The translations under genes were made by a program, and so were the position numbers. DNA of 64,000 bases from the NCBI RefSeq assembly GCF_964204645.1, contig NC_134026.1:18076150-18140149 (forward strand). Direction: 5' to 3'. Position 1 is the stretch's first letter; the number at the start of each line of letters is the position of its first letter. The stretch comes from Tubulanus polymorphus (lineage: Eukaryota > Animalia > Nemertea). Of this stretch, positions 1 to 61,746 are shown in pieces. Under the pieces are notes generated by a model. That model made no database searches and had not been told where the DNA came from. It was given only the letters and a program-made list of their open reading frames with translations.

Positions 1-236
1 GGTACCCCAGCTATAGTATAGTGTCACTGTTTTTGATTTTCTGGGGGACTTTTTTGAAATTTCCAACTTCACAATTTTTCACTTTGTCCAACACTTCACC
101 GATTCTCCGACACATTTCACCATCATCCTGACACGGCTTGCAGCTGCTATCGTGTATCTCGTCTCGGTTCTTGTCCGACAGCCGCAGGACACAATACCGC
201 CGTGTCGCTATCTCCGCGCTTCCCTATAACATGGTT
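1..236 (+). repeat. Terminal/junction repeat copy 1 (cut by window edge)
   Basis: Near-identical to 61026..61262 (direct; 1-nt indel and 1 substitution seen) and to the reverse complement of the 60614..60932 arm; diverges after ...ATGGTT at 236. Confidence 0.97.
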
Positions 237-12241: not shown

Positions 12242-12584
12242 TCAAAAGCCGTTCTACAAAAGGTGAGAAAAAAAATCTCACAAAAAAATATTTTTTCAAG
12301 ATAACTCATCATTTTTATTTCATCAACTCAATTTATACTTCAACATTTACAAGTGTCAATTGTTCTGGGTAAGTTTTCGAAATGAGGTAGCTCTCTTATC
12401 CTATTGCCGGAAAAACCGACTGCCATTTGTCTGATTTTACTTGTGTGTTCGCTCTTGAAGAATGCGGACAAAGTGAACACCGCAGTAACACACTAATAGG
12501 TATTTATATCAGGTTACAAAAATCGTTTCCAAACATTTCTAACTATAACTTTATAGCGCTAATGAGATTTTGCTCATTACAAAG

Positions 12585-13023
12585 ATGGCGTCTTTACCAA
12601 CAATACCCACTTGGCGAACAGAGCCTGGTGAATGTTACGTTTGCAAGCATGATTTTTCCAAAGGCAGCACACCCATTGACTCTGTGGTTATTACCTACAG
12701 CAACCAAACCAAAGTAAAATACACATACATTCATCGAATACTGAGAGTTTTGTTAGTATAACGACATCTGCACGATTTGTGCGATCAAGACGGTGGATAG
12801 AAATGGTCTTGTTCACTGTCCACATGGATGTAGCCCCACAAAAGATTGCAACCCTGAGCTATTGCCGTGGCACGATTCAACACCGTTCAGCTTTCCTTGG
12901 AAGTTTGCGTTCAAGGATATGTGTCAACACTTTTACATATATGGGATAATATTTTTTAAACCAAACACAGACTACCCAGATACAGACACAGAGGAGGAAA
13001 TCAAGAAGAAGATTGAAATTTAG
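12585..13023 (+). CDS. Spliced RING-like zinc-finger protein (exons 12585..12713 and 12757..13023)
   Basis: A 43-nt GT..AG intron (12714..12756) joins CYVC in exon 1 in frame with ICTIC...HCPHGC in exon 2, giving 131 aa. Confidence 0.55.
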
Positions 13024-13104
13024 AGTGAATACATCAAATGTAAATCTTTTTATTGAATACAAATAATAATATAAAATGGTATTATATTAGAACTTGTCTT
13101 AGTT

Positions 13105-13641
13105 TTAGTCTCTTGAGTAGACTTGTGACAATTTGCTCACGGATGGTGAATTTGAAAGCAGTCTATTTAGCCTGAGGTAGTTGTAAAGTTCTTGTTCAAA
13201 TTCACGATCATTGTCTTCAACACAGAATCCATACGGCAAAATAACATATCCAACATTTGGCTGTGCCTCTAGGTATCCTTTTGGAGCAAATGCATGGATG
13301 TATTTGCCTGCGTTGTATCCTGTCATCGCAAACCGAATATATTCAAATTCAGATAGATCAGATGACAAGTTAGAAAGTTCCAATAGTTCTCGTTTGTCCT
13401 TATCAGGTAAATATTTGTTGTAATTGTGGGTAAGGTAGTATCGCACTCATTTGCAAGCTCCCGTTGTTAGATGTTGGCATTCGAGCCAGAGTTTTACGTC
13501 CGTTTGAATGAACAACGGGCTGCCGATGAGATTCACGTCTGTTTTTTCAATACGATCCACCAACGCGTTTAAAGTCAAGTCAACAACGTGTTGCGGTCCG
13601 TCATAGTCGAAGTATTCTTGTGCTATCTTTGATGATGCCAT
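13105..13641 (-). pseudogene. ~178-codon gene split by one in-frame TGA
   Basis: ORFs 13447..13641 and 13105..13446 are in the same frame, separated only by TGA at 13447..13449. Confidence 0.7.
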
Positions 13642-13736
13642 TTTTTTATTTTTTTGTTGGTCGTGATACTCTGCGTGGGTAACGAAAGAGTGAAGTTCAC
13701 ATACACGACAAATGTCCTTTTATTTCGTGTATCGGG

Positions 13737-13821
13737 TTATTTCCCAATTTCTCACCCGCGAGTTACAAGAGGAGAAATAAGGTTACGAGAGGAGAATTAA
13801 GGTCCGATAAGGAGAAATAAC
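13737..13821 (+). repeat. hr-like repeat cluster
   Basis: TTATTTCCCAATTTCTCACCCGCGA followed by 2 good and 1 degenerate GTTACAAGAGGAGAAATAAG units. Confidence 0.9.
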
Positions 13822-14394
13822 ATAATTCCGATATTTTTGTTGAGATTTAGGCCAATTTTGAACTTGTCATCATACCAGTTATCGATGTTGGTTTCAAGCA
13901 TACACAAAACACCAGCTCCATTAACCATTGTTAGCATGGTTGGTCCCGCCTCTGCCATTCTCTTCATATCTGCAGGCACAGTTGTGAAGTACGACTCACC
14001 ATGACCCTGCTTGTATTTTCTCAACACTTTAAGTATCGACGTTCCACTGATGAAACAACCTTCTCTTGTCCATATACTGTTAATTTTATTTGGGTGCAGT
14101 ATTTCGGTTGGTAAATATTTGAATGGCAACATACACACTGAAAAATAAATAATATATAATTATAAATCAAGGGACATATATGAGGTACTTGTTGAGGAGC
14201 TTGGCTAGACCTTGAGGAGCTTGACTTAGAAAATGAGGTGCGTATATTAAACATAACTTACCTCTTTCCGTTGTATTCTTCGGTCACTTTTACCAAATTA
14301 TTGATAAATTCCCTTGGTGGGGGGGTTTCATATTCTTACAAAACATCTTTACAGTTTCTATTGTAATAAATCTTGTCCTGTCGAGAGTTTCCAT
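13797..14394 (-). pseudogene. BRO-N-like domain gene, probably spliced and disrupted (paralog of the 37100..37535 exon)
   Basis: KINSIWTREGCFISGTSILKVLRKY...LTMVNGAGVL aligns with KINGIWTDNGCYISGVSVLKMLKKY...LTMVNGAGIL; acceptor TTTTCAG at 14138, donor GAG/GTAAGT at 14261; upstream exon shifts frame at a C7 run. Confidence 0.5.
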
Positions 14395-14406
14395 CAGCAG
14401 ATGTCC

Positions 14407-14507
14407 TTTTCTCCATTTCTCACCCGGGTTACAAAAGGAGAACTAAGGTTACAAGAGGAGAAATAAGGTTACAAGAGGAGAAATAAGGTTACAAGAGGAG
14501 AAATAAG
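14407..14507 (+). repeat. hr-like repeat cluster
   Basis: TTTTCTCCATTTCTCACCCGG plus four tandem 20-bp units (14428..14507). Confidence 0.92.
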
Positions 14508-14537
14508 ACAAGCCCGATATTTGTGGTTCAATTTCAA

Positions 14538-14875
14538 TTATTCTAACATTTTTACGCACACTGTCCAAAATCCATCTACGGGATCTCTTTTGACGGTGTA
14601 AATGCTAAATAAGTTACTTTACGTTTGTTGATCCCTAGGTGGTCGTGAGCGTAATTTTCTTCATGTTTTGGATCGGTAAAACTCACGTCGCTCTTGATCG
14701 GATCTCTGGATGAAAACAAGATATATCGAAGACCCTCCTCTAGGTGCCTGACTGCGATGCCACCATGACCATCTCCTCTGTTTATGGGTAAAAGGCGATT
14801 GTCTCGTTCCATTGCGTGTTGGGCTAACCGAGTGAAGAGACAGCATACACAAACGAAAATCCCCTCACAATCTCT
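14538..14875 (-). pseudogene. Duplicated 3' end of the 15449..17029 gene
   Basis: Near-identical to 15449..15799 with a 13-bp deletion between CTAAA direct repeats that shifts the frame. Confidence 0.92.
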
Positions 14876-15121
14876 TAAGCAAATTAATTCTATTTCATTC
14901 AGTGTGGACAAACACCAACCTTACTCAGTCAATGACAAGTGTATGGAATTGCTAGATCTACGAGACATACCACTAGAGTTGCTGTACTTTTTCTTGTTCG
15001 AGTCTTTATATTTCAATAGACAAGACGATGATGAAAGAGAAGTGGCCATTTGCTACAATGTACTACGCGGCACGAGTTATAGACATGAACATCAGAAGAC
15101 GACTCAATGGTGGTGGTAGTG

Positions 15122-15193
15122 TTCAGATGGATCAGATGACAAGTTAGAAAGTTCCAATAGTTCTCGTTTGTCCTTATCAGGCAAATATCTGTT
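15122..15193 (-). repeat. 72-bp duplicate of 13348..13419
   Basis: Direct copy with few substitutions of an internal part of the 13105..13641 gene. Confidence 0.9.
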
Positions 15194-15208
15194 TGGAACT
15201 TTATGATC

Positions 15209-15283
15209 TTTTCTCACTTCCGGGTTACAAGAGGAGAAATAGTGGTTACGAGAGGAGACATAGCGGTTACAAGAGGAGAAATA
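15209..15283 (+). repeat. hr-like repeat cluster
   Basis: TTTTCTCACTTCCGG plus three GTTACRAGAGGAGAMATA units at 21-bp spacing. Confidence 0.88.
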
Positions 15284-15310
15284 AACCTCCTTCTATAGCC
15301 CCGCAATGAT

Positions 15311-15436
15311 ACTTCCAACTGAAATCTCGGTTCTCCCAACTGTCATCTTGGTTCTCTCAACTGTCATCACATACTCCCAACTAAAATCTCGGTTTTCCCA
15401 ACTGACATCTTGGTTCTCTCAACTGTCATCTCGAAT
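15311..15436 (+). repeat. 21-bp minisatellite, 6 units
   Basis: Consensus CTCCCAACTGTCATCTTGGTT; CAACT core at 15316, 15337, 15358, 15378, 15399 and 15420. Confidence 0.85.
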
Positions 15437-15448
15437 CTCAAAACGAAT

Positions 15449-17029
15449 TTATTCTAACATTTTTACGCACACTGTCCAGAATCCATCTACGGGATCTCTT
15501 TTGACTGTGTAAATGCTAAAGTCGCACTCTAAATATGTTACTTTACGTTTGTTGATCCCTAGGTGGCCGTGAGCGTAATTTTCTTCATGTTTTGGATCGG
15601 TGAAACTCACACCGCTCTTGATCGGATCTCTAGATGAGAACAAGATATATCGAAGACCCTCCTCTAGGTGCCTGACCGCGATGCCACCATGACCATCTCC
15701 TCTGTTTATGGGTAAAAGGCGGTTGTCCCGTTCCATTGCGTGTTGGGCTAACCGAGTGAAGAGACAGCATACACAAACGAAAATCCCCTCACAATCTCTA
15801 GCTGCGTTGCTTTCCTTTCCGATGTAATTCACCTTTGGGTCGCTGGGTCCGTTTATGGCGTTGTACTTTAAAACGTATCGATGAAGACTCGACCTGATAG
15901 TGTCTATAATGCTCACCCACTCACCCACACTACTAATCGTTGGTATCATGAACTTTAATGAAGACATGACAAAATTGGGTATAATGACTGGACCTGGAGA
16001 GTTGGTATGGGGGAAATAACGAGTTGTATACGTACAATTTTCACCTCTTGAACATTTAAGATTCAATGCGTTGACGATTTCTTGAAGTTTCTGTTTTTCT
16101 GTTGGTGCTAGATTTAAATCTTGTATAATTTTCTCTTGAATGTTGGTAGTTTCTGGAGCAGCAGTCGCACCGCCTTCACACTCATCTGGTGAGGTTGGTG
16201 GCGGTTTGGTAAATTGAGCGTTCATGTCTCCGGATAAAATTGCTGGTACGATATAAGGAAGGTTGGATAGAAACAGTCTATGAGCCCTGTCTAAATTTAA
16301 ATTGAGTGGTATATCATCAATACAATAAGTTGCCTCTGCGGTTAGATGATCCACAGTATCGTAGGTAACGTCTGGTAGAGATGCACTATTTCCACCGGAC
16401 AACGTTTGGTCTAACTTGTCGATGTGTTGGAACAATAGTTGATGGAAGAGAATTTCATCTTTGTTATCGTAAGTTGTGGTGTTTGTACCTTTGGTTATGA
16501 CTCTGTCTAAATCGGTTCCTTTGTGAGTAGATAGAACATGTTCAGTGGCACCGTTGTAGACTTCTTTTTCCAATTTAACCGATTCCATGCAATTATTAAG
16601 TCTTCTGGTAGAATCGACTAAGACCTGCTCCAAGACAGCATCGGTAGCAACCAGTGGGTATGTAGATTCTTTGGTGGCCAGATCGCTAGTATTGGGTATG
16701 TGACGATATTTGGCCTCAGATTCATCATTGCACAATTCATCGTCGTCATCAAAATCATCAAAATCATCACCGTCAGATATTATAGATTCCGGGGCACTAA
16801 ATTTTGACATTAAGGTGGCTGTCGAAAATTTTAACGCGGTATCAATGTTATCATCACCCGCTTCCAACGAATGTAGACTTTGTTCTGAACCATCATCCGA
16901 GTCCTCGTCATCGTTTTCTTCGGCCACATCGCTGTTATTGTCAAGCTCTTCGTCAGACAGTACTGGATCATCGCCGCTGCAAGCATCATCGTCCGATACA
17001 TCATAATTCTCCATAGTCTTCGCAGCCAT
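15449..17029 (-). CDS. Hypothetical protein, acidic N-terminus and Cys-containing C-terminal domain
   Basis: 574-aa ORF, likely start MAAKTME at 17029; CSRGENC and CVCC motifs. Confidence 0.7.
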   Translation of the reverse strand: MAAKTMENYDVSDDDACSGDDPVLSDEELDNNSDVAEENDDEDSDDGSEQSLHSLEAGDDNIDTALKFSTATLMSKFSAPESIISDGDDFDDFDDDDELCNDESEAKYRHIPNTSDLATKESTYPLVATDAVLEQVLVDSTRRLNNCMESVKLEKEVYNGATEHVLSTHKGTDLDRVITKGTNTTTYDNKDEILFHQLLFQHIDKLDQTLSGGNSASLPDVTYDTVDHLTAEATYCIDDIPLNLNLDRAHRLFLSNLPYIVPAILSGDMNAQFTKPPPTSPDECEGGATAAPETTNIQEKIIQDLNLAPTEKQKLQEIVNALNLKCSRGENCTYTTRYFPHTNSPGPVIIPNFVMSSLKFMIPTISSVGEWVSIIDTIRSSLHRYVLKYNAINGPSDPKVNYIGKESNAARDCEGIFVCVCCLFTRLAQHAMERDNRLLPINRGDGHGGIAVRHLEEGLRYILFSSRDPIKSGVSFTDPKHEENYAHGHLGINKRKVTYLECDFSIYTVKRDPVDGFWTVCVKMLE

Positions 17030-19884: not shown

Positions 19885-21082
19885 GATATATATTTTTCCA
19901 ATATAAATTATTTACAATATAAATGTTATAATATTATTATGTACATTATATATATATATCGGAGGGATACCACCCATAGCCATGATGGCTGTAACCGAAG
20001 CCGGCGGGTGGCAACCCAAAATAAATAATAATAATCTAATAAATAATAATAATGATAATAAAGAAATATGATGATGAGAATAGTTCTTCAAAATATCTTT
20101 AGATATTAAATGCGACCAAAAAGAAAGTTGAAATGATAGTGAAATGACAATGAAATGAAAAAAATGTTAGGATGAACAATGGACCTAGTAGAAATGAATA
20201 TTCATTATATTATAAACTTATATTAGGAATAGCTGTTAACAATAGATTTTTTGTACTGTCTAACAAAAGTTGGATAGTTATTACATTTGCGGATTGCACC
20301 AGGTAAATTTTGAAACAAGATTGCTGATTTTGAAAGAAATGACTTGTTGAAGAGGGTAGAAGTGTGTTTGGCAATTCTTGGATTATTTCGGCTACGAGTA
20401 TTGTAGTTATGGTTTGAAGCATTCGTGTCAAAAAGTTTCATAATATTCGAAGGCAGTTGGGACTTAGTAAATAAAAATGAAAATTTAGCCAATTCAAGGT
20501 TAACGAGGTCATCAAATTTGAGGATGCCATACTTTTTAAAAATGGGCGTGGAAGGGGCATTGTATTTACAATTGTCTATGAGTCTGACTGCTTTTTTCTG
20601 GAGTTTAAATAATCTGTTAGCCTGTGATCGTGAAATTAATGGTCCCCATAGATGTAAAGCGTAGGTAAGGTGGCTGTGAATATAGCTGAAATATAAAAGT
20701 TTTCTGGCATGACTAGGTAAGAAATGCTTTAATGAGTTCAAAAGATATATGTTCTTTGATATTTTAGAGCAAAGGTGTTCAACATGTGATTCCCAAGTCA
20801 AATTTGAATGTAGATAAAGACCAAGAAATTTACAACATGAGTCAATTTCAATACTTTTATCATCAAGGTGAATTTTTAAGTTACCTAGATTATCTCTGTT
20901 TTTTATAGGATGAAAAATAATGCAAACAGTCTTGTCAGTGTTGATTGTGAGTTTATTTGCATTGAACCAATCTTTAATAGAATGAAAATCAATAATAATT
21001 TTTTCAATGCTAAGATGTGAATTTGTTGATGTTATATAAATAGTTGTATCATCAGCGAATAATGGTGACAAAACTGTCAATT
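19885..21082 (-). mobile_element. 5'-truncated CR1-like LINE
   Basis: ORF 20223..21080 with RT motif LFADDT, CKFLG, IHSHLTY, LQKKAVRLI; AT-rich 3'UTR and TATC-type tail; candidate 9-bp TSD ATATAGATA (19876..19884 and 21083..21091). Confidence 0.92.
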
Positions 21083-21441: not shown

Positions 21442-22439
21442 AATAATAATAATAATAATAATTTAATTTGTATAGCGCCCTTTTCACTGTGGAACAATGT
21501 TCAACGGCGCTTTGATAGTTAATTGTAGGCAGCTTTGAAAAGGTGAGTTTTTAATGAACACTTGAAGGTTGATGCTGATGTTTCTGATCGAATAAACGGT
21601 GGTAAAGAGTTCCAGATTTGAGGCGCAGTAACAAGAAATGAACGGCCACCGAACATTTTGAGTCGATAGGGATGTGTAGATATAAGGTCCAGTGATGCAG
21701 ATCGAAGTTGACGATTAGGCACATACGGAATAACTAGGTCACAAAGGTAACGTGGCGCTAATCCTCTGAGACAATTAAAGATAATCCAAATAAGTTTAAA
21801 GGAAATCCTAGAACGAACAGGCAACCAATGTAAGTCTCGAAGTATAGGCGTGATGTGTTGACGAATAGGAGTTAAAGTAATAATGCGAGCTGCTCTATTT
21901 TGCAGCAGTTGCAGCCTGTTTAAATACATTTCAGTATTTAATCCAATAAGACAGGAATTACAATAGTCGATACGTGAAATAACGGTAGACTGTATCAAAA
22001 GTTTGGTCGATTTAACTGTTAACTGTTTACGAACTATTCCTATGGTACGAAGATGGTAAGACGCTGATCTAATGACTGCTCTGACATGCGGCTCCATCGA
22101 TAACTGCGGATCGAACAAGACACCCAAATTACGAATTGGGACACACGTTATCGGAATAGCTACATCACCAACTGAGATCGATTCGATATCAACGGAACAC
22201 AGAGATTTTGGAGAACCGAATAGCATGGCCTCAAACTTATCGGGATTACACATTAACATATTTAATAATAACCACTGATATATATCCGACAGCTTAGTTT
22301 CGAGGCTGCGTAAAAGCACAGAACAACGCTCATGATTACATTCAAGACTCATATATACTTGCTTGTCGTCAGCGAATCCATGGCGCTGAATAATGGAGTC
22401 TTCGCGAAAAAGTTCCGCAAGCGGTAAAACATAAAACAT
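21442..22439 (-). mobile_element. 5'-truncated L2-clade LINE
   Basis: ORF 21519..22454: FADD, RNLGVLFD, SRIDYCNS, LQNRAARII, HITPILRDLHWLPV, GRSF..APQIWNSLP, LKTHLF; 3' stem AGCGCC...GGCGCT and (TTA)n tail; 7-bp TSD AATCCTT (21435..21441 and 22440..22446). Confidence 0.95.
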
Positions 22440-22515
22440 AATCCTTGTAGGCATACTGGAAAACCCGGAAACAATCGGTCCGAAACAATCATTATCCAGT
22501 GCTTAAGTGTTATCT

Positions 22516-25008: not shown

Positions 25009-25072
25009 AAAAACCTAACCCAACAAAAACCTAACCCAACAAAAACCTAACCCAACAAAAACCTAACCCAAC
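25009..25072 (+). repeat. Four exact 16-bp tandem repeats with telomere-like core
   Basis: (AAAAACCTAACCCAAC)x4; the reverse strand contains GGGTTAGG; similar single unit near 21105. Confidence 0.92.
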
Positions 25073-25110
25073 AAAAATGTTACAAATCGTGTCCGAACAA
25101 GTTCACGTTG

Positions 25111-25175
25111 CTTATTTCTCCTCTTGTAACCTTATTTCTCCTCTTGTAACCTTATTTCTCCTCTTGTAACCCGGG
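25111..25175 (-). repeat. hr-like repeat cluster
   Basis: (CTTATTTCTCCTCTTGTAAC)x3 exact, followed by CCGGG. Confidence 0.95.
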
Positions 25176-34658: not shown

Positions 34659-35042
34659 ATGTTGGAAGAGGTTCATTTTAGAAACCACCACCCATATAGA
34701 CAAGGACGACTTGATAGAGTTCGCAATCTTGACCGCCAATTCAACTTGGATTTTCAAAGGTTTATGAATCGCGTTGTTGAAGGCGGTAATCCTGTCGGTA
34801 AAGTCGAGAAACACAATGTGGAAACATATTCAATCAATGACGCCGCTGATACCCATATCGATACCCAAAATATTGCTGAAGACTCTGTGAACTTGTGTAC
34901 TATTTGTTACATAAAAGAACGTGATGTAGCAATTGTTGACTGTGGACACTCTTTCTGTTGTACCAGTTGTGTAAAATATTTGGAAAATTGTTCAATTTGT
35001 CAATGTAGGATAAGATATGTATTGCCGTACTACAACAGTTGA
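34659..35042 (+). CDS. C-terminal C3HC4 RING-finger protein (IAP/MDM2-type RING), 5' part possibly disrupted
   Basis: CTIC...DCGHSFCCTSC...CSIC; an upstream in-frame ATG (MAIANIF...) is separated by one TAA. Confidence 0.8.
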   Translation: MLEEVHFRNHHPYRQGRLDRVRNLDRQFNLDFQRFMNRVVEGGNPVGKVEKHNVETYSINDAADTHIDTQNIAEDSVNLCTICYIKERDVAIVDCGHSFCCTSCVKYLENCSICQCRIRYVLPYYNS

Positions 35043-35075
35043 ATTAAATTATGCGTTCAAAATATTCGCTCATGC

Positions 35076-35121
35076 CTTATTTCTCCTCTTGTAACCCGCG
35101 GGTGAGAAATGGAGAAATAAG
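35076..35121. repeat. hr-like imperfect palindrome
   Basis: CTTATTTCTCC-TCTTGTA-ACCCGCGGGT-GAGAAAT-GGAGAAATAAG: perfect 11-bp outer arms and a 10-bp palindromic core. Confidence 0.9.
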
Positions 35122-36815: not shown

Positions 36816-37986
36816 ATGGCAGTTGACCCAATGGCTGTTCATTCAATACGAGAAATTGTCAGATTGAGACAATTATGGACAGGTATTGATGCTCCAAACG
36901 AACTCATGGAACTAATGACAAATGGTTTCCATTGGCCGGGATAGTGGTTTCTTTGAACCAGACCATGGTTTCCATTGGCCGGGATAGTGGTTTATTTAAA
37001 CCAGACCATGGTTTCCATGGCCGGGACAATAGTTTCTTTGGGTCGGATGATGGTTTTCAAAACACATTTATTTTCACATATTTTTATATTTTTTTTCAGA
37101 GATTACAAATACATATGTGCTGAACTTCTACCCATGGATATAATGGACGTGAAGATCAACGGAATATGGACAGACAACGGCTGCTACATTTCTGGTGTAT
37201 CTGTTCTAAAGATGTTGAAGAAGTATACTACTAGAGACAGAGGGGAACCGACCTTTGCTAGTGAGCCCGATGAGTATAAAATGAAAGCTGTGGTGGGCCA
37301 ACATTATCTAACCATGGTAAACGGCGCTGGTATTCTGAAAGTGATCGAGAATAACATAGAAAAGTGGCAACACAACCCACGGGTTGTTCAGATGTGTGCT
37401 GCTTTGGGCATTACGACTGAGTTCAAGTCAACGACAGCACTCGACCCGGTTAAACCAATTCCAAAAGAGAAAAAGACATTCGCTCCAAGACCATCACGAC
37501 ATCTCGCACAGAGAACAGGCAATCATGCCACTTAATAAAGGAAATGGCACAGAGGCCTTTGGGTCCTTGTTAACCGGATTCCTTAGCCATTTGGCTGAAG
37601 AACGGAAGGAAAAAGAACGCGAACGGGAACAAGAACGTTTGGAGAGAGAAAAATGGTATGCAATGATAAACGCTGAGTGGAATAGAATTGACAAGATTAT
37701 AATTTTACCCAAACAAATACCTACAAAACCCATACCGTCAACTTCAGCTACTGTCTACCCCGAAGGCTACACCAACTGCCAAGAAATCTACGGCCGAAAA
37801 AGCTACCCCGATCGCCGCAAGAAAATCTACAAGCAAGCAGGCATCCAAACGCAAAGCTTTACCCAAACGCAAAGTTGTCGTAATGGTTCAATGTTTAATC
37901 TCTCACTCTTGTTCACTTTCTTCTTCTTCTTCCTCCTCTTCTTCTGTTTCACTAGGAGACTCGTACTTTATTTGTTCAGAGTCTGA
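36816..37986 (+). CDS. BRO-N-like domain gene, probably spliced; 3' part in a second frame
   Basis: ACCATGG start at 36816, strong polypyrimidine acceptor at ~37099, exon paralogous to 13797..14138; exact splice structure unresolved. Confidence 0.45.
36922..37049 (+). repeat. 43-bp tandem repeat, 3 copies
   Basis: ATGGTTTCCATTGGCCGGGATAGTGGTTT... starting at 36922, 36965 and 37008. Confidence 0.9.
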
Positions 37987-38110: not shown

Positions 38111-40411
38111 TCAAATTTCAATACTCAATAGTTCTGAATCCGAAACGTCTTCTTCCCAATCGAACAGAGTCACTTCTTCCACGGGTTTATCCGACTCTAG
38201 ACGAACATCGATCATTTCAAATTTTACAGCCGGATTACATTTATGTTTTAGATATTCCGGCGGTAGATGAACTTCGTTGGTGCACTGAATAAAATTGAGT
38301 CCAGACTTTGACTTGGAAACGCATCGTGTCTTTGTCATTGGGTAGAAAATTTCATCGGGAGCAGTGGAGTGACATGAATTTGTAATGTCCCCGAGCGGTC
38401 TCTTTTTAGATGTTATGTTCTTTTGGCGATAATTTTTCACATCTTCTCTATCCCGCTTCACTCTGGATTCGAAAAATGATCGCACATAATACATTTCGGG
38501 TAATTCGGTACCAGTGGTATCTGAGCCGTAAAACTTTGCCATTTGTTCGATCAGTAGACGTTGCATGCGTTCCATGGTGTAAGTGGGAAATTCCTCCACC
38601 ACAGCATAAGCAAGTCCCATTCGGTTAACAGCTCTCCATCTTTGGTCTTCGGGCATCTCGTCTAAGTTTTCCTTTTCTGCCTTTATGAGTGCAACGTGAA
38701 CTGATTGTGGCTCTATCATATTTACGACCACAGCCTGTTCTAACATCTGCATTCCAAAAGTTCCTTGTGGGCATACTAGTATGGGTGCCTTGTCAAAAAC
38801 CTCTATGAGGATGGGTTTATTTTCGAGGGAATCGACATCGAACAATATCAACATAGCCTTGCCATGTTTGGGTATAACGTGTTTAGAGTGAGTGTAGAAG
38901 TTCGGATCGTATCCCTTGCTTTTGTCGAGATGACAGGTAGACTTGGCTTCATCAACACACGGACACTGAGATTCTTCTGGTGTGATGCTAAACGACAGTG
39001 GGAACTTGTCTTTGGGAAATTTTTCAGTTTCGAACGGTTCGTTTTGTAAATGTTCGGCAGCTAGATACCTGTATTTTTTTGCGTATCCTGTAAATGACCC
39101 TCCACGCACTTTGGGTTTTTGTACAAGCTTGTCGCAAGATTGCAATTTTTCTATCGTCATATCGACCAACATTTGTCTTCTAGTTTCCTTGTCCGTTGTG
39201 TCCATGACCGATTGCATTTCTTCGACCGATATAGTAGGATTTCCAAAAGTTTTCAACTCAAACACAGCCAGACAAGGATTTTCCAAGATGGAATGATCGG
39301 CGACGGCAGTTGATGTTTTGTGGTGTTGAGTTACTGATGGCGCTTGGGTACAAGCAAATAGGTCGTCATCTGCCGTCATCACCATATCTCCGTCACTGTC
39401 TCGATCCGTGGGTATGTAAGCGTATTTGTTGAGAACGGAATCGCTAAATTGACACATGTCGTTCATGTATTTTTCAGGATCTTCTTCATAAGTTATATCG
39501 CCGTCGGGAGTGCTCGTCATAAAGGGTAAATTGTTGTTGAGATATCTACCACTGAGATGGGCATGTAGAGTTTTGTTTTTTGGATTTTTCACCAAATGAT
39601 CAACAACTTGTCCAAATAGATAGTCAAACGCGAGGGCATGAAAGTATGTTCCGGCTTTAGCTGCATCGTTCGTAATGAAATGATCGTTGCCAATATCATT
39701 CTGTATCGCCACACAACTTTCTATAAGCCCACCTTCGATTTTTTCTATCTTTGCCTTGACATGAGACAAAAATCCCTCGTCGTTCGCCAAACAATCATCG
39801 TTGTCCACCAAACAATCATTATCCGACATGGCTCTTATATCAGATCCAAAACTTAGTGTCTGAAGCCATGTCTGTGGACCCATAAGAGTTGACCATGTTC
39901 GTTCTATGACATTTGGGTCAGCATAAGAAGCCACATCTCTACCTTCAACGAATAAATTGGTTTTCGTCCAATTACAAAAACCTTGATTGTGCAGGGTACA
40001 TTCGTGATATGCTCGCCATACTCTATCTTGATCGCACAGTTGTCGTGTTTTTTCTCTATCGATGGTAGAGTTGTACGACGACGGTTCTTTAATATATTCT
40101 AACACGCATAATCGCAACGTTTCTCTAAGTCTACCAAACAGGGTAAGATGTCGTGATTTATTTAAGGTGTTGTGGGGAAAGTTGCTATTTGCAGCAATAG
40201 CTTCATCGGGTGAAATTTTAGTAACCAATGGTTGAGGTATAGGAGTAAGTATTTTTTTCTTGGTTACATTTGGCACAGGCTGTTTTTTGGGTACGTTATT
40301 TTTCTTCGCATTGTTCTTTTTCGGACCCGAGGCGGGCGAAGATTTGGTGGTATTTTTAGCAGCAGCCTTTGCCATTTTTAGAAATGGCACTTTGTCCTGT
40401 CTGGCACGCAA
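38111..40411 (-). CDS. Alkaline exonuclease (PD-(D/E)xK, lambda-exo/YqaJ/herpes UL12-like)
   Basis: AAKAGTYFH, LPFMTSTPDG, LAVFELKT and MQMLEQ motifs in the expected order; likely start MAKAAAK at 40375. Confidence 0.78.
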   Translation of the reverse strand: MRARQDKVPFLKMAKAAAKNTTKSSPASGPKKNNAKKNNVPKKQPVPNVTKKKILTPIPQPLVTKISPDEAIAANSNFPHNTLNKSRHLTLFGRLRETLRLCVLEYIKEPSSYNSTIDREKTRQLCDQDRVWRAYHECTLHNQGFCNWTKTNLFVEGRDVASYADPNVIERTWSTLMGPQTWLQTLSFGSDIRAMSDNDCLVDNDDCLANDEGFLSHVKAKIEKIEGGLIESCVAIQNDIGNDHFITNDAAKAGTYFHALAFDYLFGQVVDHLVKNPKNKTLHAHLSGRYLNNNLPFMTSTPDGDITYEEDPEKYMNDMCQFSDSVLNKYAYIPTDRDSDGDMVMTADDDLFACTQAPSVTQHHKTSTAVADHSILENPCLAVFELKTFGNPTISVEEMQSVMDTTDKETRRQMLVDMTIEKLQSCDKLVQKPKVRGGSFTGYAKKYRYLAAEHLQNEPFETEKFPKDKFPLSFSITPEESQCPCVDEAKSTCHLDKSKGYDPNFYTHSKHVIPKHGKAMLILFDVDSLENKPILIEVFDKAPILVCPQGTFGMQMLEQAVVVNMIEPQSVHVALIKAEKENLDEMPEDQRWRAVNRMGLAYAVVEEFPTYTMERMQRLLIEQMAKFYGSDTTGTELPEMYYVRSFFESRVKRDREDVKNYRQKNITSKKRPLGDITNSCHSTAPDEIFYPMTKTRCVSKSKSGLNFIQCTNEVHLPPEYLKHKCNPAVKFEMIDVRLESDKPVEEVTLFDWEEDVSDSELLSIEI

Positions 40412-44679: not shown

Positions 44680-45739
44680 GTGAATTACGGTCATAACGTC
44701 CTCAAGTCAAAACGTCCTCAGGTCAAAACGTCCTCAGGTCAAAACGTCCTCAGGTCAAAACGTCCTCAGTCAAAACGTCCTCAAGTCAAAACGTCCTCAG
44801 GGCAAAACGTCCTCAGGTCACAACGTCCTTATGTCAAAACGTCCTCACTAATATCAAGTCAAGTAGATATATTTGTTATTATTATTTTTAGTTTATAACT
44901 GCCACTTTTCTTAGTTAGGTCTTCATCATTGTGGTTTGCTCCCCTGACAAGCATCTGTTTCTTACCACTGTGAATATACAGGGTAGTTGACTAAAACTTA
45001 GTTACTTCCAGATATGGATGATGATGGTCGGCGACATATCAATCTCGGGAGAAACCCAGGATCTTGTTACTAGGATTAGGGCGCACTCGCGTCTCCCTAT
45101 CCTAAGTACTAACCATATATTTTGTTCATAAACTTCATGAATTCTTAAAATCATTGATGTAAAATATAAATTAAGTGTAATAGATTTTGACACAGAAGTG
45201 AGTTAAAGTCGAGATGGTTTGGGTAATTACTAATTTGCCTGTTAATTGAGACCATGTTTGATGCCTATCAGCAATTTGCTTTGATTTCCTTGATCAAAGA
45301 GAACCAAATTGAAAAATGTGACATATGAATGATCAGAAATAAAAGCTCACTGGTTTGCTTCAATTAGAAGACCAATTGCCCGAAATTAATTATGACTTTG
45401 ATCTATGCATTTCTATATATACAGTAATTGCATTAATTAGCAATTACCATCTCGACTTCAACTCAATTCCATGTCACATTGGTTATAGATTTTTCAACAT
45501 CTATATATTCAAATAGACGTTTTTTTGCATTGATAAAAAGCAGTATGAAGTTTTAGGACTATTTTAGGTTGTTCTTTATCTGTTTATTCTTGAAATAAAG
45601 ATACAATCGTAAGATATCAATGAGTTCTTTGAACAAGGTGAGGACGTTTTGACTTGAGGACGTTTTGACCATCAAACTGAGGACGTTTTGACCAACAAAC
45701 TGATGACGTTTTGACATGAGGACGTTTTGACCTGTCACC
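44680..45739. mobile_element. Non-autonomous foldback/MITE-type DNA transposon
   Basis: Ten tandem GTCAAAACGTCCTCA units (44690..44847) and five inverted units (45639..45731); flanking direct repeat GTCAGA (44674..44679 and 45740..45745); internal inverted repeat ~45188..45476; no transposase. Confidence 0.88.
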
Positions 45740-45811
45740 GTCAGACTCATCGTCGACCTCCTGATTGTCACTTGGGCAGCTGAACGGAGCAAGTCCATCT
45801 ACGAAATTTAT

Positions 45812-55741: not shown

Positions 55742-57136
55742 TTACCAGCCAATGAAAAGTTTTGAAGTTAGAATTTTATTCGTATCCATCCATTCTTGTA
55801 CCTCGTTAGAAGTGAAACTGAAAACGTATCTCGATTGTTCCATGTTTTCGCACATGACCAACCATTTTTTCAAATCTGACTTTGTTATCGTATACGTAAT
55901 GAACAGGTGATGATTACCACCAATGACCTCTGTAGATTTTTCAACTGCTCGATTCGGCGCCTTGTTATCCAACTTGACCGTGATTCTTTGTAAAATGTCT
56001 GTGTTTACCGTGGTTGATCCACCGATATTGTCCAAGTCTTCCATTATGCTTTCTATCTCCGGGGTAAAGTTGTACATTGCGTTGGTCGATTCTATTTCGT
56101 ACATCTTGACGATAGAAAATGAATGGTCTTCGTCTATATTAACCGCAGAGTAGCATTTTTTGGCAAAACCATTTCCCACTTTACTTAAAGATGGGTAAAT
56201 CCATCTGTAAAGTATTGCTTTCCATTTGTGATTTCGGACTTGTGCTAAAAACGCGATCGCGTCTTGTGTATTTCCACAATTTATCTCGTCAACATGAGGT
56301 ACGATAAATGTGTCGAGAAATTCCACACCTTTAATGGTCAAATACACATAAGGTTTAACATCACCGCTATGAGATGCTTTTTGTAAATCTCTAGTTGTGG
56401 TTTCTTCAACTCCCATGTCACCGTTATAATCGCCTGGGTGATTTGATTTAGAAGAGTCGTTGGATGCTACACCCACACTCTCACCCCCTATTGAAGAACA
56501 GGCACCCACACTGGTTGTTTCACTGGCTATGCTGATACTGTCGTCATTTTCGCTGGCCAATATCGCATTTTCCATTAACTGTTTATCTTGTTTCGGGTCC
56601 TCTGTGTTCAACAACGAATCTATTGTTAAACAAGTAGATAAAATGCAAACTGTTGATTTGTCGTTTTTTATTTTTTCGGACAAAGAGCCAACAGTGAGCG
56701 TCAGTGGGTACGGGTATAACTCTGTTTTGGTTTTTGTGTTGATTTCGGAATCTTTATCTGTTGTGTTAAAACCATCGATATCAAGTCCCTTGTCTCGACT
56801 TTGCCATAATTTTATTCTATTCCGAATCGATCGTCTGTTTTGTTGCTTGGAGACTAATTCTCCGACTGGGTACGATTGGTCTACGGCTGCCTTCATGATA
56901 CTTGGGCTAAGTTTTATAATTTTCTTTCCGTCCAATTGACCGGGACCGTTTACCACCGCATCTGTTGTCTTTCGCACGTGAGTGACTGCCTTTTTCCACG
57001 TTGCCAGTCGAATATTCTTCAATATGACATTAGTGCTATCTTGTCTTGTTTGCCGCCGCTTGTTCTTGGTTGTGGTGATGTCTTCATTAACTTCATCTGT
57101 CGACGTTGGGACTTTAATATTTTTTCTCCTAACCAT
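55742..57136 (-). CDS. Hypothetical viral protein
   Basis: 464-aa ORF starting 1 bp after the stop of the upstream gene. Confidence 0.75.
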   Translation of the reverse strand: MVRRKNIKVPTSTDEVNEDITTTKNKRRQTRQDSTNVILKNIRLATWKKAVTHVRKTTDAVVNGPGQLDGKKIIKLSPSIMKAAVDQSYPVGELVSKQQNRRSIRNRIKLWQSRDKGLDIDGFNTTDKDSEINTKTKTELYPYPLTLTVGSLSEKIKNDKSTVCILSTCLTIDSLLNTEDPKQDKQLMENAILASENDDSISIASETTSVGACSSIGGESVGVASNDSSKSNHPGDYNGDMGVEETTTRDLQKASHSGDVKPYVYLTIKGVEFLDTFIVPHVDEINCGNTQDAIAFLAQVRNHKWKAILYRWIYPSLSKVGNGFAKKCYSAVNIDEDHSFSIVKMYEIESTNAMYNFTPEIESIMEDLDNIGGSTTVNTDILQRITVKLDNKAPNRAVEKSTEVIGGNHHLFITYTITKSDLKKWLVMCENMEQSRYVFSFTSNEVQEWMDTNKILTSKLFIGW

Positions 57137-57137
57137 T

Positions 57138-59894
57138 TTACAGTTCTGTTATATCCTCGTCTTCTTTATCCAAATATTTTCGTAACAATTTGTCCCAGCG
57201 TTCGCAGTCTCGTTTTGCTGTTGTTTCAATGTGTCTGACACGGTTGGCGCTCTTGCTTATGGTGCCGATGACGTTTTCTAATATAATTTTTGCTCCATCG
57301 CCTTTTCGGTCTTTTTTATAAGTGATAGTTCTCACACCGCTCGAGCCTCGATCGTACGCGGTACCACCACCTGCCTTTGGCGACAACACTTTAGAGTCTG
57401 TTGCTCTCATGTTTGTGTAATCTAATAATAACATTTCCACAGTATTCATGTTTTTTGTCATGTTTTTGAATATCAACGAATAAAACGGAGCTTTTGATTC
57501 ATTTATTGAATTGTTCAACGCTAAAAGATGTATCAAAGTCTCGTTTCCTATCTTGTAGAACGCCATAGTTCTTACTACAAACGTGGGTAGCGATGGGTCT
57601 TGTCGTCGGCGCACGATCAAGTCTTTATTCAACACAAAGTCCTTGTCACCAAACAGCGTAATGGTCATATCCTTACTTCCTACTCCAGCACCACCGGGTT
57701 TTTGTTTTTTTGGTGTTTTCAATAGTTTTATTTTCGTTTCAGTTGGTGGATTTGTAAAAAACACGATCGTGTCGGTGGGTAGAGGTAAAAGATTGTTGTC
57801 CATTTTGAATTCTGACGTGAGCACCCTTGATGCATACAAAGGCATGGCTAGCTCATCGGCCGAGAAAATCAAAAACTCTGCAAACGCCATAACTCTTTGC
57901 AAACACGGTATCAAATTCTCCACGTAGTACCGTTCGAGTTGGTCCGGTCCAATTGATAGCGGTCTGGCTAACCAACACATGTTTTGATCTATGAATGGTA
58001 ATAAAAACGAACAACAAACACTATACCACAAGTCCGGTCGATTGATATGGTCAAATTTATCACTCTCATCTACGTCTATCATAGATTGGTCTACAAAACT
58101 TGTGTAAGCCGCATCGACCGGTTCTTCTGTTTTGCCACTTGTATACGTATAGTCAAGTGATCCAACCAACAGAGCAAGCACAATCAATTCACCGTTAACG
58201 TGGTTAACAGCTATATCGTTTTCTATATTCGTATCATTTGCCTTTTTGAACAATTCTCTCGAATCTATTGGAGCCGGTGTTGAGTGATGCATAATCCTTT
58301 CTGGGAAATACAACACGTCGTATCTGGCCGATTTTATGCCGGCTATGAGTACCGACATCATTGGATTTTTTTCAAACTGTTGTTCCTTGAACGTTTGGAA
58401 TCGGCTATACCGACCCGTGGTGTCAGTGCCTTGTGTGGTAAAACAAGTCAACGATATAGGGAGCCAGTAATGGAGTATTGGCATTTTGGACGTGATTGAA
58501 TAATTATAATAGCCCAAATTTCTCATCAACCTTGTGACTCCTTCTTCTTGTGGGTAATTTTCCATTAACATTTCTATGAAAATTCTCTGCTCTTCAAAAG
58601 TCTCGGCGTTATGGGGTAAATTTGATGCACTTCCCAACTGTTCATCAAGATATTTCGTTGTGTATTTGATGTCGTTTAGAAATTCCACATCGATTGGATT
58701 TTTTCCACGTGCCAATAGAGCTTCTGTTCTCTTCACTTCGGTCCATAGAACAAATTGTTCTGCTGATAGTGTACCTGCTTGTTGTTGATCTAAACTGGGT
58801 ATCGTTATGAGCCTTGCGTGATACGGCGTGACTTCTAGTGTTACGATAGTCGGGAGTATATTTTGGTCCAATAACATACACTTTATAGAATACAAGTGCA
58901 AATTGGGGGCTAGTGTGTAAATTCGGACACTTTGCATGTCTTCGTCAAACAGTCCAATACCACCGTGCTCCTGTGGTCCATATATTTGAATAATGCACAT
59001 TGTTATGTCTAACAAAGTTTCGGTTATCGACTTGTACGTTTGTTGGTTCTCTTTGTTGAACATGGCTTTTAAACATTCTTTCGATCTTTGTGCATACAAG
59101 TCGTTGTAAGCTTTCTGAACATGATCCGTATTTTCATATTTTTTCAGAAACTGGATGAAGTTCAAAATAACGGCAAACGATAGTTTATATACTGCTACGA
59201 AAGACGTCTCCGCTATAGCGGTTTCTATCAAGTTTGAACTTGCAATTATCATGTCCATATATTGATGAAGATCAAAATCGTCCGCAACGAAAACATCCCT
59301 GTTGAACAATTGTTCATTGATGTTTGCCGCCCGTATATGTTGTATGAGGGTATCATCGTATTGTTTTAATTGATCGTTGGTAACAGCCGAGAACAATGCT
59401 CGTCGGTCTTTTTTCACTTGTGTTTTTTCGATATAATTCGCAGTGGCACAAACCCATCTATGCCATAGCGATGTGTCGGCAAAAACTTCAATTTTATTTT
59501 GTTTCTGAACAACAGGTGACGCCATTAACAGCGTATCGGGTATATGTTTCTCTATGCTGTGTTTAAATTCACTTATCGTATTTTCCATCGACTTGTAAAA
59601 ATTCACCGTACTTATTGGTGAGATGTAGAGATCATTGTCCAAGTACTTTGCATTTTCCTCTTGCATAACACTATCGCCGCTACCTCCAAACACTTGTTCT
59701 TTCTCTGCATAGTTGGACGTTATAAGCGGAGTTAGAACAGTGTTTTTTACTGTTTCGATAGCTTGAATAGAAATGAACGAATAATCCCATTGATTAACTA
59801 CCACCGGATCGGGAGTTGGTGCTGGGGCTTGAGCGGGAGGTATCGGTGCTGCTACGACTGGTACAAGCGGACCAACACCAGCCATTTTGGACAA
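57138..59894 (-). CDS. Large hypothetical viral protein
   Basis: 918-aa intact ORF, likely start MAGVGP at 59885. Confidence 0.78.
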   Translation of the reverse strand: MSKMAGVGPLVPVVAAPIPPAQAPAPTPDPVVVNQWDYSFISIQAIETVKNTVLTPLITSNYAEKEQVFGGSGDSVMQEENAKYLDNDLYISPISTVNFYKSMENTISEFKHSIEKHIPDTLLMASPVVQKQNKIEVFADTSLWHRWVCATANYIEKTQVKKDRRALFSAVTNDQLKQYDDTLIQHIRAANINEQLFNRDVFVADDFDLHQYMDMIIASSNLIETAIAETSFVAVYKLSFAVILNFIQFLKKYENTDHVQKAYNDLYAQRSKECLKAMFNKENQQTYKSITETLLDITMCIIQIYGPQEHGGIGLFDEDMQSVRIYTLAPNLHLYSIKCMLLDQNILPTIVTLEVTPYHARLITIPSLDQQQAGTLSAEQFVLWTEVKRTEALLARGKNPIDVEFLNDIKYTTKYLDEQLGSASNLPHNAETFEEQRIFIEMLMENYPQEEGVTRLMRNLGYYNYSITSKMPILHYWLPISLTCFTTQGTDTTGRYSRFQTFKEQQFEKNPMMSVLIAGIKSARYDVLYFPERIMHHSTPAPIDSRELFKKANDTNIENDIAVNHVNGELIVLALLVGSLDYTYTSGKTEEPVDAAYTSFVDQSMIDVDESDKFDHINRPDLWYSVCCSFLLPFIDQNMCWLARPLSIGPDQLERYYVENLIPCLQRVMAFAEFLIFSADELAMPLYASRVLTSEFKMDNNLLPLPTDTIVFFTNPPTETKIKLLKTPKKQKPGGAGVGSKDMTITLFGDKDFVLNKDLIVRRRQDPSLPTFVVRTMAFYKIGNETLIHLLALNNSINESKAPFYSLIFKNMTKNMNTVEMLLLDYTNMRATDSKVLSPKAGGGTAYDRGSSGVRTITYKKDRKGDGAKIILENVIGTISKSANRVRHIETTAKRDCERWDKLLRKYLDKEDEDITEL

Positions 59895-60017
59895 GTCTTG
59901 GTATGGTTTACGTTTTAAGTACTTTTAAATACAAAACAAAAAAATTTCGGTGAGATTTTTTCTCACCTTCCTTAAGTATAAAAGTAACTTACAAAATCTC
60001 ACCTTATCTTTTTTAAA

Positions 60018-60421
60018 ATGGTCCGTATTGTCGCAAGTACTTTGGTGTTCTTCTTTTTAGCGCAGCATCAACAATATCTCTCACACCAACACCAGCCAGT
60101 GGCTTGCATTTCGTTATTTTCAGAAGAGATTTCACCTACTGTAACTTGGACACAGAACCAATGATTGCCAAAATGGTTGAATTTTCAACTAAAATTCAAT
60201 CCTTATCCATGCCCGAACGAAATCTTTTTGCCAGAGAATACGACGCAACCTTTTACAACGATCTAAAGCAGGTAACGAGAGATATGAGAAATGTTGCAAG
60301 TAATAACAACTATCAACACTGCCAACGACTACCCAGAGACATCAACAACATGATATCCAACCTAACCGCCTACATCGCCAACAGAAACACCAAGCCAACA
60401 GAAACAACGCATAAGAAATAA
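60018..60421 (+). pseudogene. Small secreted protein gene with a frameshift in the signal peptide
   Basis: TATAAAA at ~59977; AAAATGG start MVRIVASTLVFFFL; one missing base near 60060 separates it from AASTISLTPTPASGLHFV... (ORF 60104..60421). Confidence 0.55.
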
Positions 60422-60613
60422 ATTACATGAATTTTTGGTTAATTTATTTCTATTTAAATCACAAGAATGTAAATACACTTTGTTCAATAAACTTGCTGAT
60501 ATTATATTTGATGTTCTGGGGTATTTTTACTAGTCGAATCTTTGATAGACATCCGTGGTGTCTGTCTTGCTCGATCCTCATATGAACGGCGTTGGTCGAA
60601 TATTTTGAGCAGA

Positions 60614-60932
60614 CTGGTAATTTTAGGGCACTCAGTCAAATCAATTCATCCCACCAACCATGGTATAGGGAAGCGCGGAGATAGCGACACGGCGGTATTG
60701 TGTCCTGCGGCTGTCGGACAAGAACCGAGACGAGATACACGATAGCAGCTGCAAGCCGTGTCAGGATGATGGTGAAATGTGTCGGAGAATCGGTGAAGTG
60801 TTGGACAAAGTGAAAAATTGTGAAAGTTGGAAATTTCAAAAAAAGTCCCCCAGAAAATCAAAAACAGTGACACTATACTATAGCTGGGGTACCGGGGTTC
60901 TGGGGTATCTGGGGTACTTGGGGTACCAGAAA
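60614..60932 (-). repeat. Terminal/junction repeat copy 2 (left arm of palindrome)
   Basis: Reverse complement of 60987..61304 with about 1 substitution and 1 homopolymer indel. Confidence 0.97.
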
Positions 60933-60986
60933 TTAGTACTAATTTAAGTTCCAAAAATTCTGTTAAAATGGAACAGTCACCTGTTT

Positions 60987-61304
60987 TTTCTGGTACCCCA
61001 AGTACCCCAGATACCCCAGAACCCCGGTACCCCAGCTATAGTATAGTGTCACTGTTTTTGATTTTCTGGGGGACTTTTTTGAAATTTCCAACTTTCACAA
61101 TTTTTCACTTTGTCCAACACTTCACCGATTCTCCGACACATTTCACCATCATCCTGACACGGCTTGCAGCTGCTATCGTGTATCTCGTCTCGGTTCTTGT
61201 CCGACAGCCGCAGGACACAATACCGCCGTGTCGCTATCTCCGCGCTTCCCTATACCATGGTTGGTGGGATGAATTGATTTGACTGACTGCCCTAAAATTA
61301 CCAG
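60987..61304 (+). repeat. Terminal/junction repeat copy 3 (right arm of palindrome)
   Basis: Inverted partner of 60614..60932; includes the sequence of 1..236. Confidence 0.97.
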
Positions 61305-61746
61305 ACAACAATATCACCCTTTCCTAAATAAATTGGACAAGTATTTTGAATACTTTGCTGAAATCTTTATTCAAATCAACACATTCAACCCTCTAGGGGA
61401 TATAGCAGAGTCAATGGGTAGGATACCGCAACAGTATATTGTTGAAACCTAGAAAATGTAAAGACTTACCGAGCGATAATCAAGAAGCAGACAAAAATAA
61501 AACGAGGATATACTTAAATTTCTTCATCAAGAAGGGTAAAAACATTGGTTGGTTCAATGTTGTGCATGTTGATATGATATGATTGGTGATTCTTGTATAA
61601 ATTGTCAACTGAATGTAAGTAAATATATATGATTTGTAGTTTGGCACTAAATTTTGTGACATATCGATTGACTAACAACATATCTTTTATATGTTAACGA
61701 GTTAGAAATTTTGGTAACCTGGACACTCTGAACATTTATCACATAA

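Follow-up and report, generated by a model that had tools for sequence, protein, structure and literature searches.

The three redundant origins of HSV-1 are described as inverted boxes around an AT-rich spacer (PMC12543377). For KSHV, two oriLyt copies are reported, with an AT palindrome, a G-quadruplex (G4) adjoining the AT-rich region and dependence of the origin on that G4 (PMC10714766), and in HCMV oriLyt a G4 is given as essential (PMC11350156). Dispersed palindromes serve as origins in baculoviruses (PMC6669502). Mollusc herpesviruses have a large palindrome within the genome, which is lost when the DNA is cloned and which the account cited does not call an origin (PMC3623871).

The intergenic palindrome of ~690 bp considered here lies near the right end of a 64-kb stretch of DNA (the window, meaning the whole stretch analysed). 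With HSV-1 oriL and oriS it shares redundant copies, inverted arms around an AT-rich spacer and an intergenic position (PMC12543377), but its arms are much longer (319 nt), G4 tracts stand beside the spacer, the outer parts diverge and no OBP gene was found in the window. The oriLyt elements of KSHV, HCMV and EBV are similarly duplicated, with a G4 beside an AT-rich stretch or palindrome; as described, they are asymmetric, promoter-tied and 1-2 kb long, whereas the present element is a full dyad with two facing G4 tracts (PMC10714766, PMC11350156). The palindrome between ORF49 and ORF50 of OsHV-1/AVNV is also long, internal and from an invertebrate herpesvirus. Compared by description, one palindrome is reported there, with 168 bp missing from the cloned sequence, as against a family with G4 ends here (PMC3623871). 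Baculovirus hrs are likewise dispersed, multi-copy, palindromic, redundant as origins and variable in number; being arrays of ~30-bp imperfect palindromes in another virus group, rather than one 690-bp palindrome per site, they provide a comparison of the 'works-like' kind (PMC6669502). What the present analysis points to is a real, multi-copy, virus-associated cis element that is most likely origin-like in its action.

Table 1. Features of the palindrome, its family and the surrounding DNA (window coordinates)
Feature	Position	Strand	Remarks
Left arm	60614-60932	+	319 nt
Right arm	60987-61304	-	318 nt; inverted copy of left arm
Spacer	60933-60986		asymmetric, 54 nt, 27.8% GC
G-tract, left	60886-60923	+	five GGGG runs (four GGGGTA, one GGGGTT); predicted G-quadruplex, 5' of spacer on top strand
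G-tract, right	60996-61033	-	mirror of left tract; 5' of spacer on bottom strand
16-bp perfect AT-rich palindrome	60930-60945		arm/spacer edge
Outer part of arm	60614-60655	+	confined to the two arms of this palindrome; locus-specific yet symmetric
Shared block	60684-60733	+	common to diverged arm types; X6 depth peak ~9.8x unique at 60698
A-tract block	60838-60885	+	adjoins G-tract; common to diverged arm types; X6 depth ~6.7x unique at 60865
Third arm	1-236	+	cut by window start in outermost G-run
Right flank	61305-64000		broken reading frames
Assemblin-like protease with scaffold-like tail	8079-10574	-	main herpes-like marker
Predicted class I fusion glycoprotein	1268-3943	-	16% of the cluster's members have Baculo_F; prediction score 0.91
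Putative PD-(D/E)xK exonuclease	38111-40375	-	
LINE-like reverse transcriptase fragments	20226-21080, 21522-22502	-	two fragments, 5'-truncated
Third LINE-like fragment	380-832 (to 1116)	+	5'-truncated; (AATCT)n tail

Between the two arms there are a single substitution and, in an A-run, an indel of one base, much as an earlier sequence-only reading of the locus had it (about two positions). That reading took the palindrome to be a single one, and so missed the third arm at the start of the window and the multi-copy family to which all three arms belong. The five G4 tracts that it placed at the inner end are present and mirrored in the other arm; these two G-tracts are the sole canonical G4 motifs in the window and the only places where G4Hunter reaches 1.5 (score 1.84), and a G-quadruplex beside the AT-rich spacer is predicted. 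The spacer and the 16-bp palindrome that it emphasized do exist, but with less to mark them out. The spacer's AT-richness is modest (its GC content ranks among the lowest 8% for stretches of 54 nt, and is 18% within 60930-60951 at its edge) and the 16-bp palindrome, while the longest perfect one in the window, is of a kind of which, by our own arithmetic, about one is expected in 64 kb at this composition, so that solely its position is notable. The spacer is a candidate unwinding site. A 104-aa ORF (60968-61282), lying inside spacer and arm and with no Pfam match, is taken to be spurious. All 12 Rfam matches are far under gathering scores, and the 11 that overlap the palindrome centre reflect the hairpin of the palindrome; a sigma-70 promoter scan, a type of scan not suited to such DNA, gave chance level.

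The core of the palindrome is real DNA and not an assembly artefact. Five sequencing runs from three studies (X1-X5) contain the stretch, and X6, a raw-read run of a fourth study, was added by species label; all but X4 were aligned to the window, and X1 may be its source run. In X6, position 60932 is joined to 60986 on opposite strands in 50 of the 1,961 placed reads, with 29 start places, and 16 further reads make the spacer join at neighbouring offsets. Contigs also cross the spacer (depth 332 in X1, 62.9 in X2, 36.6 in X3 and 3.8 in X5), which brings the crossings to five runs from four studies, and the prospect raised by the sequence-only reading, that no reads would span the palindrome, has not been borne out. 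The left arm-flank junction is present in X1 record 1 and X5 record 23 and the right one in X1 record 6, each at single-copy depth, and at 60631 the right arm's letter is carried by 38 of 78 X6 reads, the arms being of about equal depth. Confirmation by reads spanning both arms, to which that reading had also looked, is partial: the spacer is crossed, but no X6 read and no contig among those listed extends through both arms as far as the unique DNA on either side, and the pairing of the two flanks via one spacer therefore rests on the window assembly. This lack, together with the 60 X6 reads that enter poly-G at 60897, is what could be urged for an assembly or fold-back artefact; given the crossings in five runs, the arm-specific letters at equal depth and the existence of both flank junctions, that explanation is refuted for the core and retains practically no credence. 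The poly-G tails are presumably signal dropout, which would make X6 undercount the spacer.

The third arm repeats the right arm directly (99.2%) at a distance of 61,026 nt and is inverted with respect to the left arm (98.7%), its flank being present in X6 (65 reads), X1, X2 and X3. A gene block of 60.4 kb is therefore bounded by inverted arms, the G-tract ends of which point outward. For copy number, contig depth is an estimate and no true count, and X3 (patchy depth) and X5 (depth 3-6) were left out. Relative to unique viral DNA, X1 has the spacer at 4.0x and the inner arm at 8.0x, an arm/spacer ratio of 2.0, and from these near-integer ratios every X1 inner arm appears to face the same spacer. 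The corresponding values in X2 are 1.84x and 4.46x, and in X6 the spacer stands at 2.0x, with higher depths in the shared and A-tract blocks (Table 1). The estimate is thus of two to four near-identical palindromes per viral copy, two of which are shown within the viral block, and of a spacer identical across them. At 60663 the third-copy type accounts for 78 of 159 X6 reads, a share equal to about two copies and suggestive of another palindrome with matched arms of its own.

Resemblance within the family is patchy in an orderly way. X6 depth at 60619-60631 is about twice unique, and loose ends from diverged arms occur in X6 at 60684 (225 reads), 60731 (71), 60733 (125) and 60840 (62). An X2 contig of 19,792 nt at depth 36.2 (unique viral depth 34.1) has two arm blocks at its end, with the ~100 nt between them skipped. 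Family members have the centre and discrete blocks in common and diverge outward of 60656 or 60684, a pattern that would be the expected trace of a functional core with protein-binding boxes; the shared block at 60684-60733 is a candidate box of this type. A multi-copy host MITE, which the sequence-only reading had allowed for, has a different copy structure, since transposon copies share their ends whereas these share their centre and differ at the outer ends. That a host foldback transposon or MITE was inserted several times into an endogenous virus has in its favour the other host elements in the window (the LINE-like fragments and a 1.05-kb element discussed below), the same inverted hexamer that starts and ends each arm (60614-60619 and 60924-60929) and the lack of X2 depth on the outer arm of the 60614 palindrome, though holes in contigs prove nothing. 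Shared-block depth, however, is at most ~12x viral unique and near-integer in X1, two copies lie in one 64-kb window, and no target-site duplication was found at the outer ends of the palindrome, just as the sequence-only reading had observed. A transposon origin is accordingly rated as quite improbable.

The window is likely an endogenous invertebrate herpesvirus, because herpes-like genes and host retrotransposon fragments share it, and the herpes context assumed by the sequence-only reading has moderate support from the assemblin-type protease. In a fold search, herpes proteases were the top 24 of the 50 matches listed (Z 4.1-5.1, rmsd 3.9-6.0, 119-143 aligned), the next unrelated structure having Z 3.6; the model of the first 300 residues is of low confidence (pLDDT 38). 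No Foldseek match reached E<=0.001 (HCMV protease ranked second, at E 0.064), Pfam assemblin was matched at E 0.89 in one of five proteins, an Atlas search with the protease gave no match, and two homologs were found among 5.8 billion proteins. The ORF has what we take to be the invariant protease motifs. An assemblin-fold protease with a scaffold tail would, with moderate confidence, place the virus in Herpesvirales. The class I fusion protein, of which no homologs were found, is a lead, and the prediction, together with a 2,066-aa ORF, fits a herpes-like virus. The exonuclease label is putative and presumes a PD-(D/E)xK motif; that ORF also has two homologs among the 5.8 billion proteins, a model at pLDDT 31 and no match among PDB sequences. 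Tegument-like labels of ORFs in the window are likewise assumed.

Pfam matched 3 of the 37 window ORFs, and above cut-off only a RING-finger protein (34659-35042, E 1.8e-8). No terminase, portal, HK97-type capsid protein or DNA polymerase was recognised among the window ORFs with Pfam and PHROGs, nor any transposase, integrase, recombinase or resolvase in the window. PDB sequence searches gave no match, and PHROGs weak matches and nothing stronger.

The LINE-like fragments, which sit between viral genes, match one another at E 1e-15 to 2e-5, and one of the three has an RVT_1 match (E 3e-4, under the curated cut-off). The 1.05-kb element (44687-45742) is non-coding and is framed on both sides by inverted arrays of a 16-bp unit. 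It is likely a DNA transposon of the host and seems to have inserted close to where a viral reading frame ends. The 7-mer that follows it recurs at 62709-62715. Residence in an animal genome is argued from the LINE-like fragments, this element and two broken blocks; integration would be into a host genome, likely an invertebrate's, no host flank being seen. A dispersed family of tandem units of 20-21 bp, one end of which carries a short hairpin, occurs at 292-316 (just beyond the third arm), 13737-13848, 14408-14534, 15210-15284, 25105-25175 and 35070-35121, and intergenic short tandem arrays at 25009-25077 and 36922-37040 have units of 16 bp and 43 bp. The broken block at 12200-15450 contains partial duplicates of neighbouring viral genes, 14579-14920 repeating the end of 15449-17029; 13800-14159 is a paralog of 37008-37535. 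At 57127-57199, six X6 reads have a 71-nt deletion and many variants are at 10-15% of reads, so that X6 carries several haplotypes or copies.

The genes to the right of the palindrome, called decayed in the sequence-only reading, do have broken reading frames. ORFs of at least 150 aa cover 21% of the right flank; among the six main gene blocks the figure is 53% in the one with LINE fragments and 76-96% in the other five. The stretch 12200-15400 is equally broken (ORF cover 0%). In X6 no indel is common within 61651-64000 (maximum 3 of 25-28 reads), and the frame breaks are therefore not assembly errors; they may reflect splicing. The companion claim, that the arms are much better conserved than these genes, mixes arm-to-arm identity with loss of frame. 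What stands of it is that the right flank diverges faster, X2 differing from the window there by 8 substitutions in 1,294 nt and in the left flank by 8 in 3,582 nt (small numbers). A short multi-copy repeat lies in the right flank at 61508-61589 (X1 depth 354 versus 80).

Rearrangement near the palindrome is seen in X2, where a 16,495-nt record at depth 34.1 matches 57000-60581 in reverse and a record of equal length and depth matches 62707-64000 forward. By that equality both are taken as one contig, with the left block inverted relative to the right. If the unseen 11 kb are colinear, the junction would be near 45,727, at most ~15 nt from the end of the 1.05-kb element. The breakpoints at 60581 and 62707 are outside the arms, and so give no evidence for inversion driven by the arms.

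Of the three functions offered in the sequence-only reading (cleavage/packaging junction, origin, or recombination/resolution site), origin fits best. That the palindrome is a repeated lytic-type replication origin of a herpes-like virus is held tentatively, at a little under an even chance. It consists of inverted arms around an AT-rich spacer, is present in more than one copy per genome (by the third arm and by the spacer depths, which are estimates), retains discrete blocks in diverged arms, is intergenic and has the only G4 motifs of the 64 kb. In the proposed mechanism, symmetric paired binding of an initiator protein to the conserved boxes in the two arms would be followed by melting of the AT-rich spacer. 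Each strand has its G-tract 5' of the spacer, and this tract would form a G-quadruplex, holding the bubble open and recruiting replication proteins, with two forks departing in opposite directions. Template switching inside the palindrome might keep paired arms alike, locus-specific outer parts included, and recombination between arms of different copies might invert or reshuffle the intervening blocks as a side effect. Pfam recognised no origin-binding protein, polymerase or helicase in the window. Cumulative GC skew has no clear turn at the palindrome, and the keto-skew maximum at 60,057 tracks gene direction. Since a G4 is reported for all human herpes packaging signals, the G-tract does not discriminate between an origin and such a signal (PMC13595911).

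That the palindrome is a junction for cleavage/packaging and segment inversion, comparable to the internal a sequence of HSV-1, is possible though unlikely. The arms would bound invertible blocks of ~60 kb and, with their G4 and T-tracts, would be the recognition sites of the terminase, which would pass over internal copies as long as the capsid had room and cleave inside the asymmetric spacer. The 60.4-kb block between inverted arms is reminiscent of the unique regions of herpesviruses (PMC12096621, PMC11092209). The a sequence, with pac1 and pac2, is described as having G-runs with T/A tracts, as G4-forming and as having internal copies between inverted repeats; pac1 itself is T-rich DNA flanked by G-rich runs that forms G4, and a headful mechanism lets internal pac copies go uncut (PMC13595911). 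The present G-runs, with their short T-containing linkers and nearby T-tracts, are a loose fit to pac1. Single contigs join an arm to unrelated DNA in or beside the G-tract (X2 at 60899, X5 at 60916, X3 at 61039), and the window itself starts within the G-tract of the third arm. Yet the packaging proposal of the sequence-only reading is weakened by pac2: CGCGGCG, a motif that invertebrate herpesviruses may or may not use, has no exact match in the window, its one-mismatch matches (42 found, 36 +/- 7 expected) are at chance, and those in the arms are ~240-260 nt from the spacer. Also against it, molecule starts and ends do not accumulate at the spacer in X6 (with integrated DNA, a library of sheared whole-genome fragments may hide them), no termini are seen, and the sole inversion, that in X2, breaks outside the arms. 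Known junctions, moreover, pair unlike signals, whereas the palindrome junction is symmetric.

One of those contig breaks bears on a quite different role, that of a telomere-mimic site of integration and excision. Here recombination with host TTAGGG would take place through the degenerate GGGGTA units, in the way of the HHV-6 telomeric repeats, and the palindrome would offer a G-rich strand in both directions, a role compatible with that of an origin or a pac signal. In the X2 contig the G-tract (from 60899) adjoins three TTAGGG units, beyond which lie 255 or more unrelated bases, and the G-rich strand continues into the viral tract. HHV-6 is described as integrating via such repeats in fixed orientation and its T1/T2, like the present case, involve G-rich hexamer-like units, a likely integrated herpesvirus and, here, one contig that joins TTAGGG; differences are that the repeats are inverted rather than direct and that there is no perfect TTAGGG array in the window, such an array being required by HHV-6 (PMC5537676). 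The virus appears endogenous with no recognised transposase or integrase in the window, but an integrase gene may lie outside it. The join is in a single contig of a single run, listed with no depth, three units are short, tandem TTAGGG is absent from the window, and the sequence reached may be another diverged viral arm. The chance of such a role is considered slim. Teratorn, an endogenous herpes-like element bounded by inverted repeats, is the other integration system to be compared; the arm ends here are not of its CCYT-type 12-19 bp form, there is no TTAA duplication and no transposase, and the true element ends are outside the window (PMC10175614).

Symmetric arms around an asymmetric shared spacer are also the layout of site-specific recombination and resolution sites. 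On that pattern the palindrome could be a hairpin-telomere resolution site, or the concatemer junction of hairpin-ended modules, and fold-back reads from hairpin ends would resemble spanning reads. Fold prediction does allow short hairpins at both spacer edges, but the predicted fold of the isolated spacer does not stand out from those of shuffled versions (z -0.21 to -0.56), the window yielded no recognisable recombinase or resolvase, and a hairpin junction would have the same unique DNA on both sides, whereas the flanks here differ and are each at single-copy depth. This is a very improbable reading.

Relatives of the palindrome were sought more broadly. Motif scans for arm and spacer found none in viral contigs, metagenome contigs or prokaryote genomes, and related-locus scans found none among 52, 174 and 13 candidate stretches. 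The viral matches to a degenerate G-tract pattern, L001-L004 (1001-1028), were rejected, as they have only a 9-bp repeat and no long inverted repeat; three of the four resemble collagen-type coding repeats. In the literature covered, which included few subscription papers, no such palindrome family is described for any invertebrate herpesvirus.

How deep-branching endogenous invertebrate herpesviruses integrate is left open by a recent survey (10.1101/2025.04.19.649669). A combination of several of the roles above would have such a virus possess a modular genome, in which G-quadruplex dyad palindromes stand between long blocks (one of ~60 kb) and act as origins, as crossovers that invert or reshuffle blocks, and as telomere mimics for integrase-free entry and exit at chromosome ends; taken whole, this is improbable. 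The virus is little sampled, to judge by two relatives each for two of its proteins and none for a third among 5.8 billion. Should the telomere lead hold, HHV-6-style integration would extend to invertebrates. The cis-acting signals of invertebrate herpesviruses are barely described in the literature so far as it was accessible, and the palindrome is a concrete, short and multi-copy candidate for one. If it is an origin, as is tentatively favoured, a herpesvirus would be using dispersed hr-like origins built as a G4 dyad.
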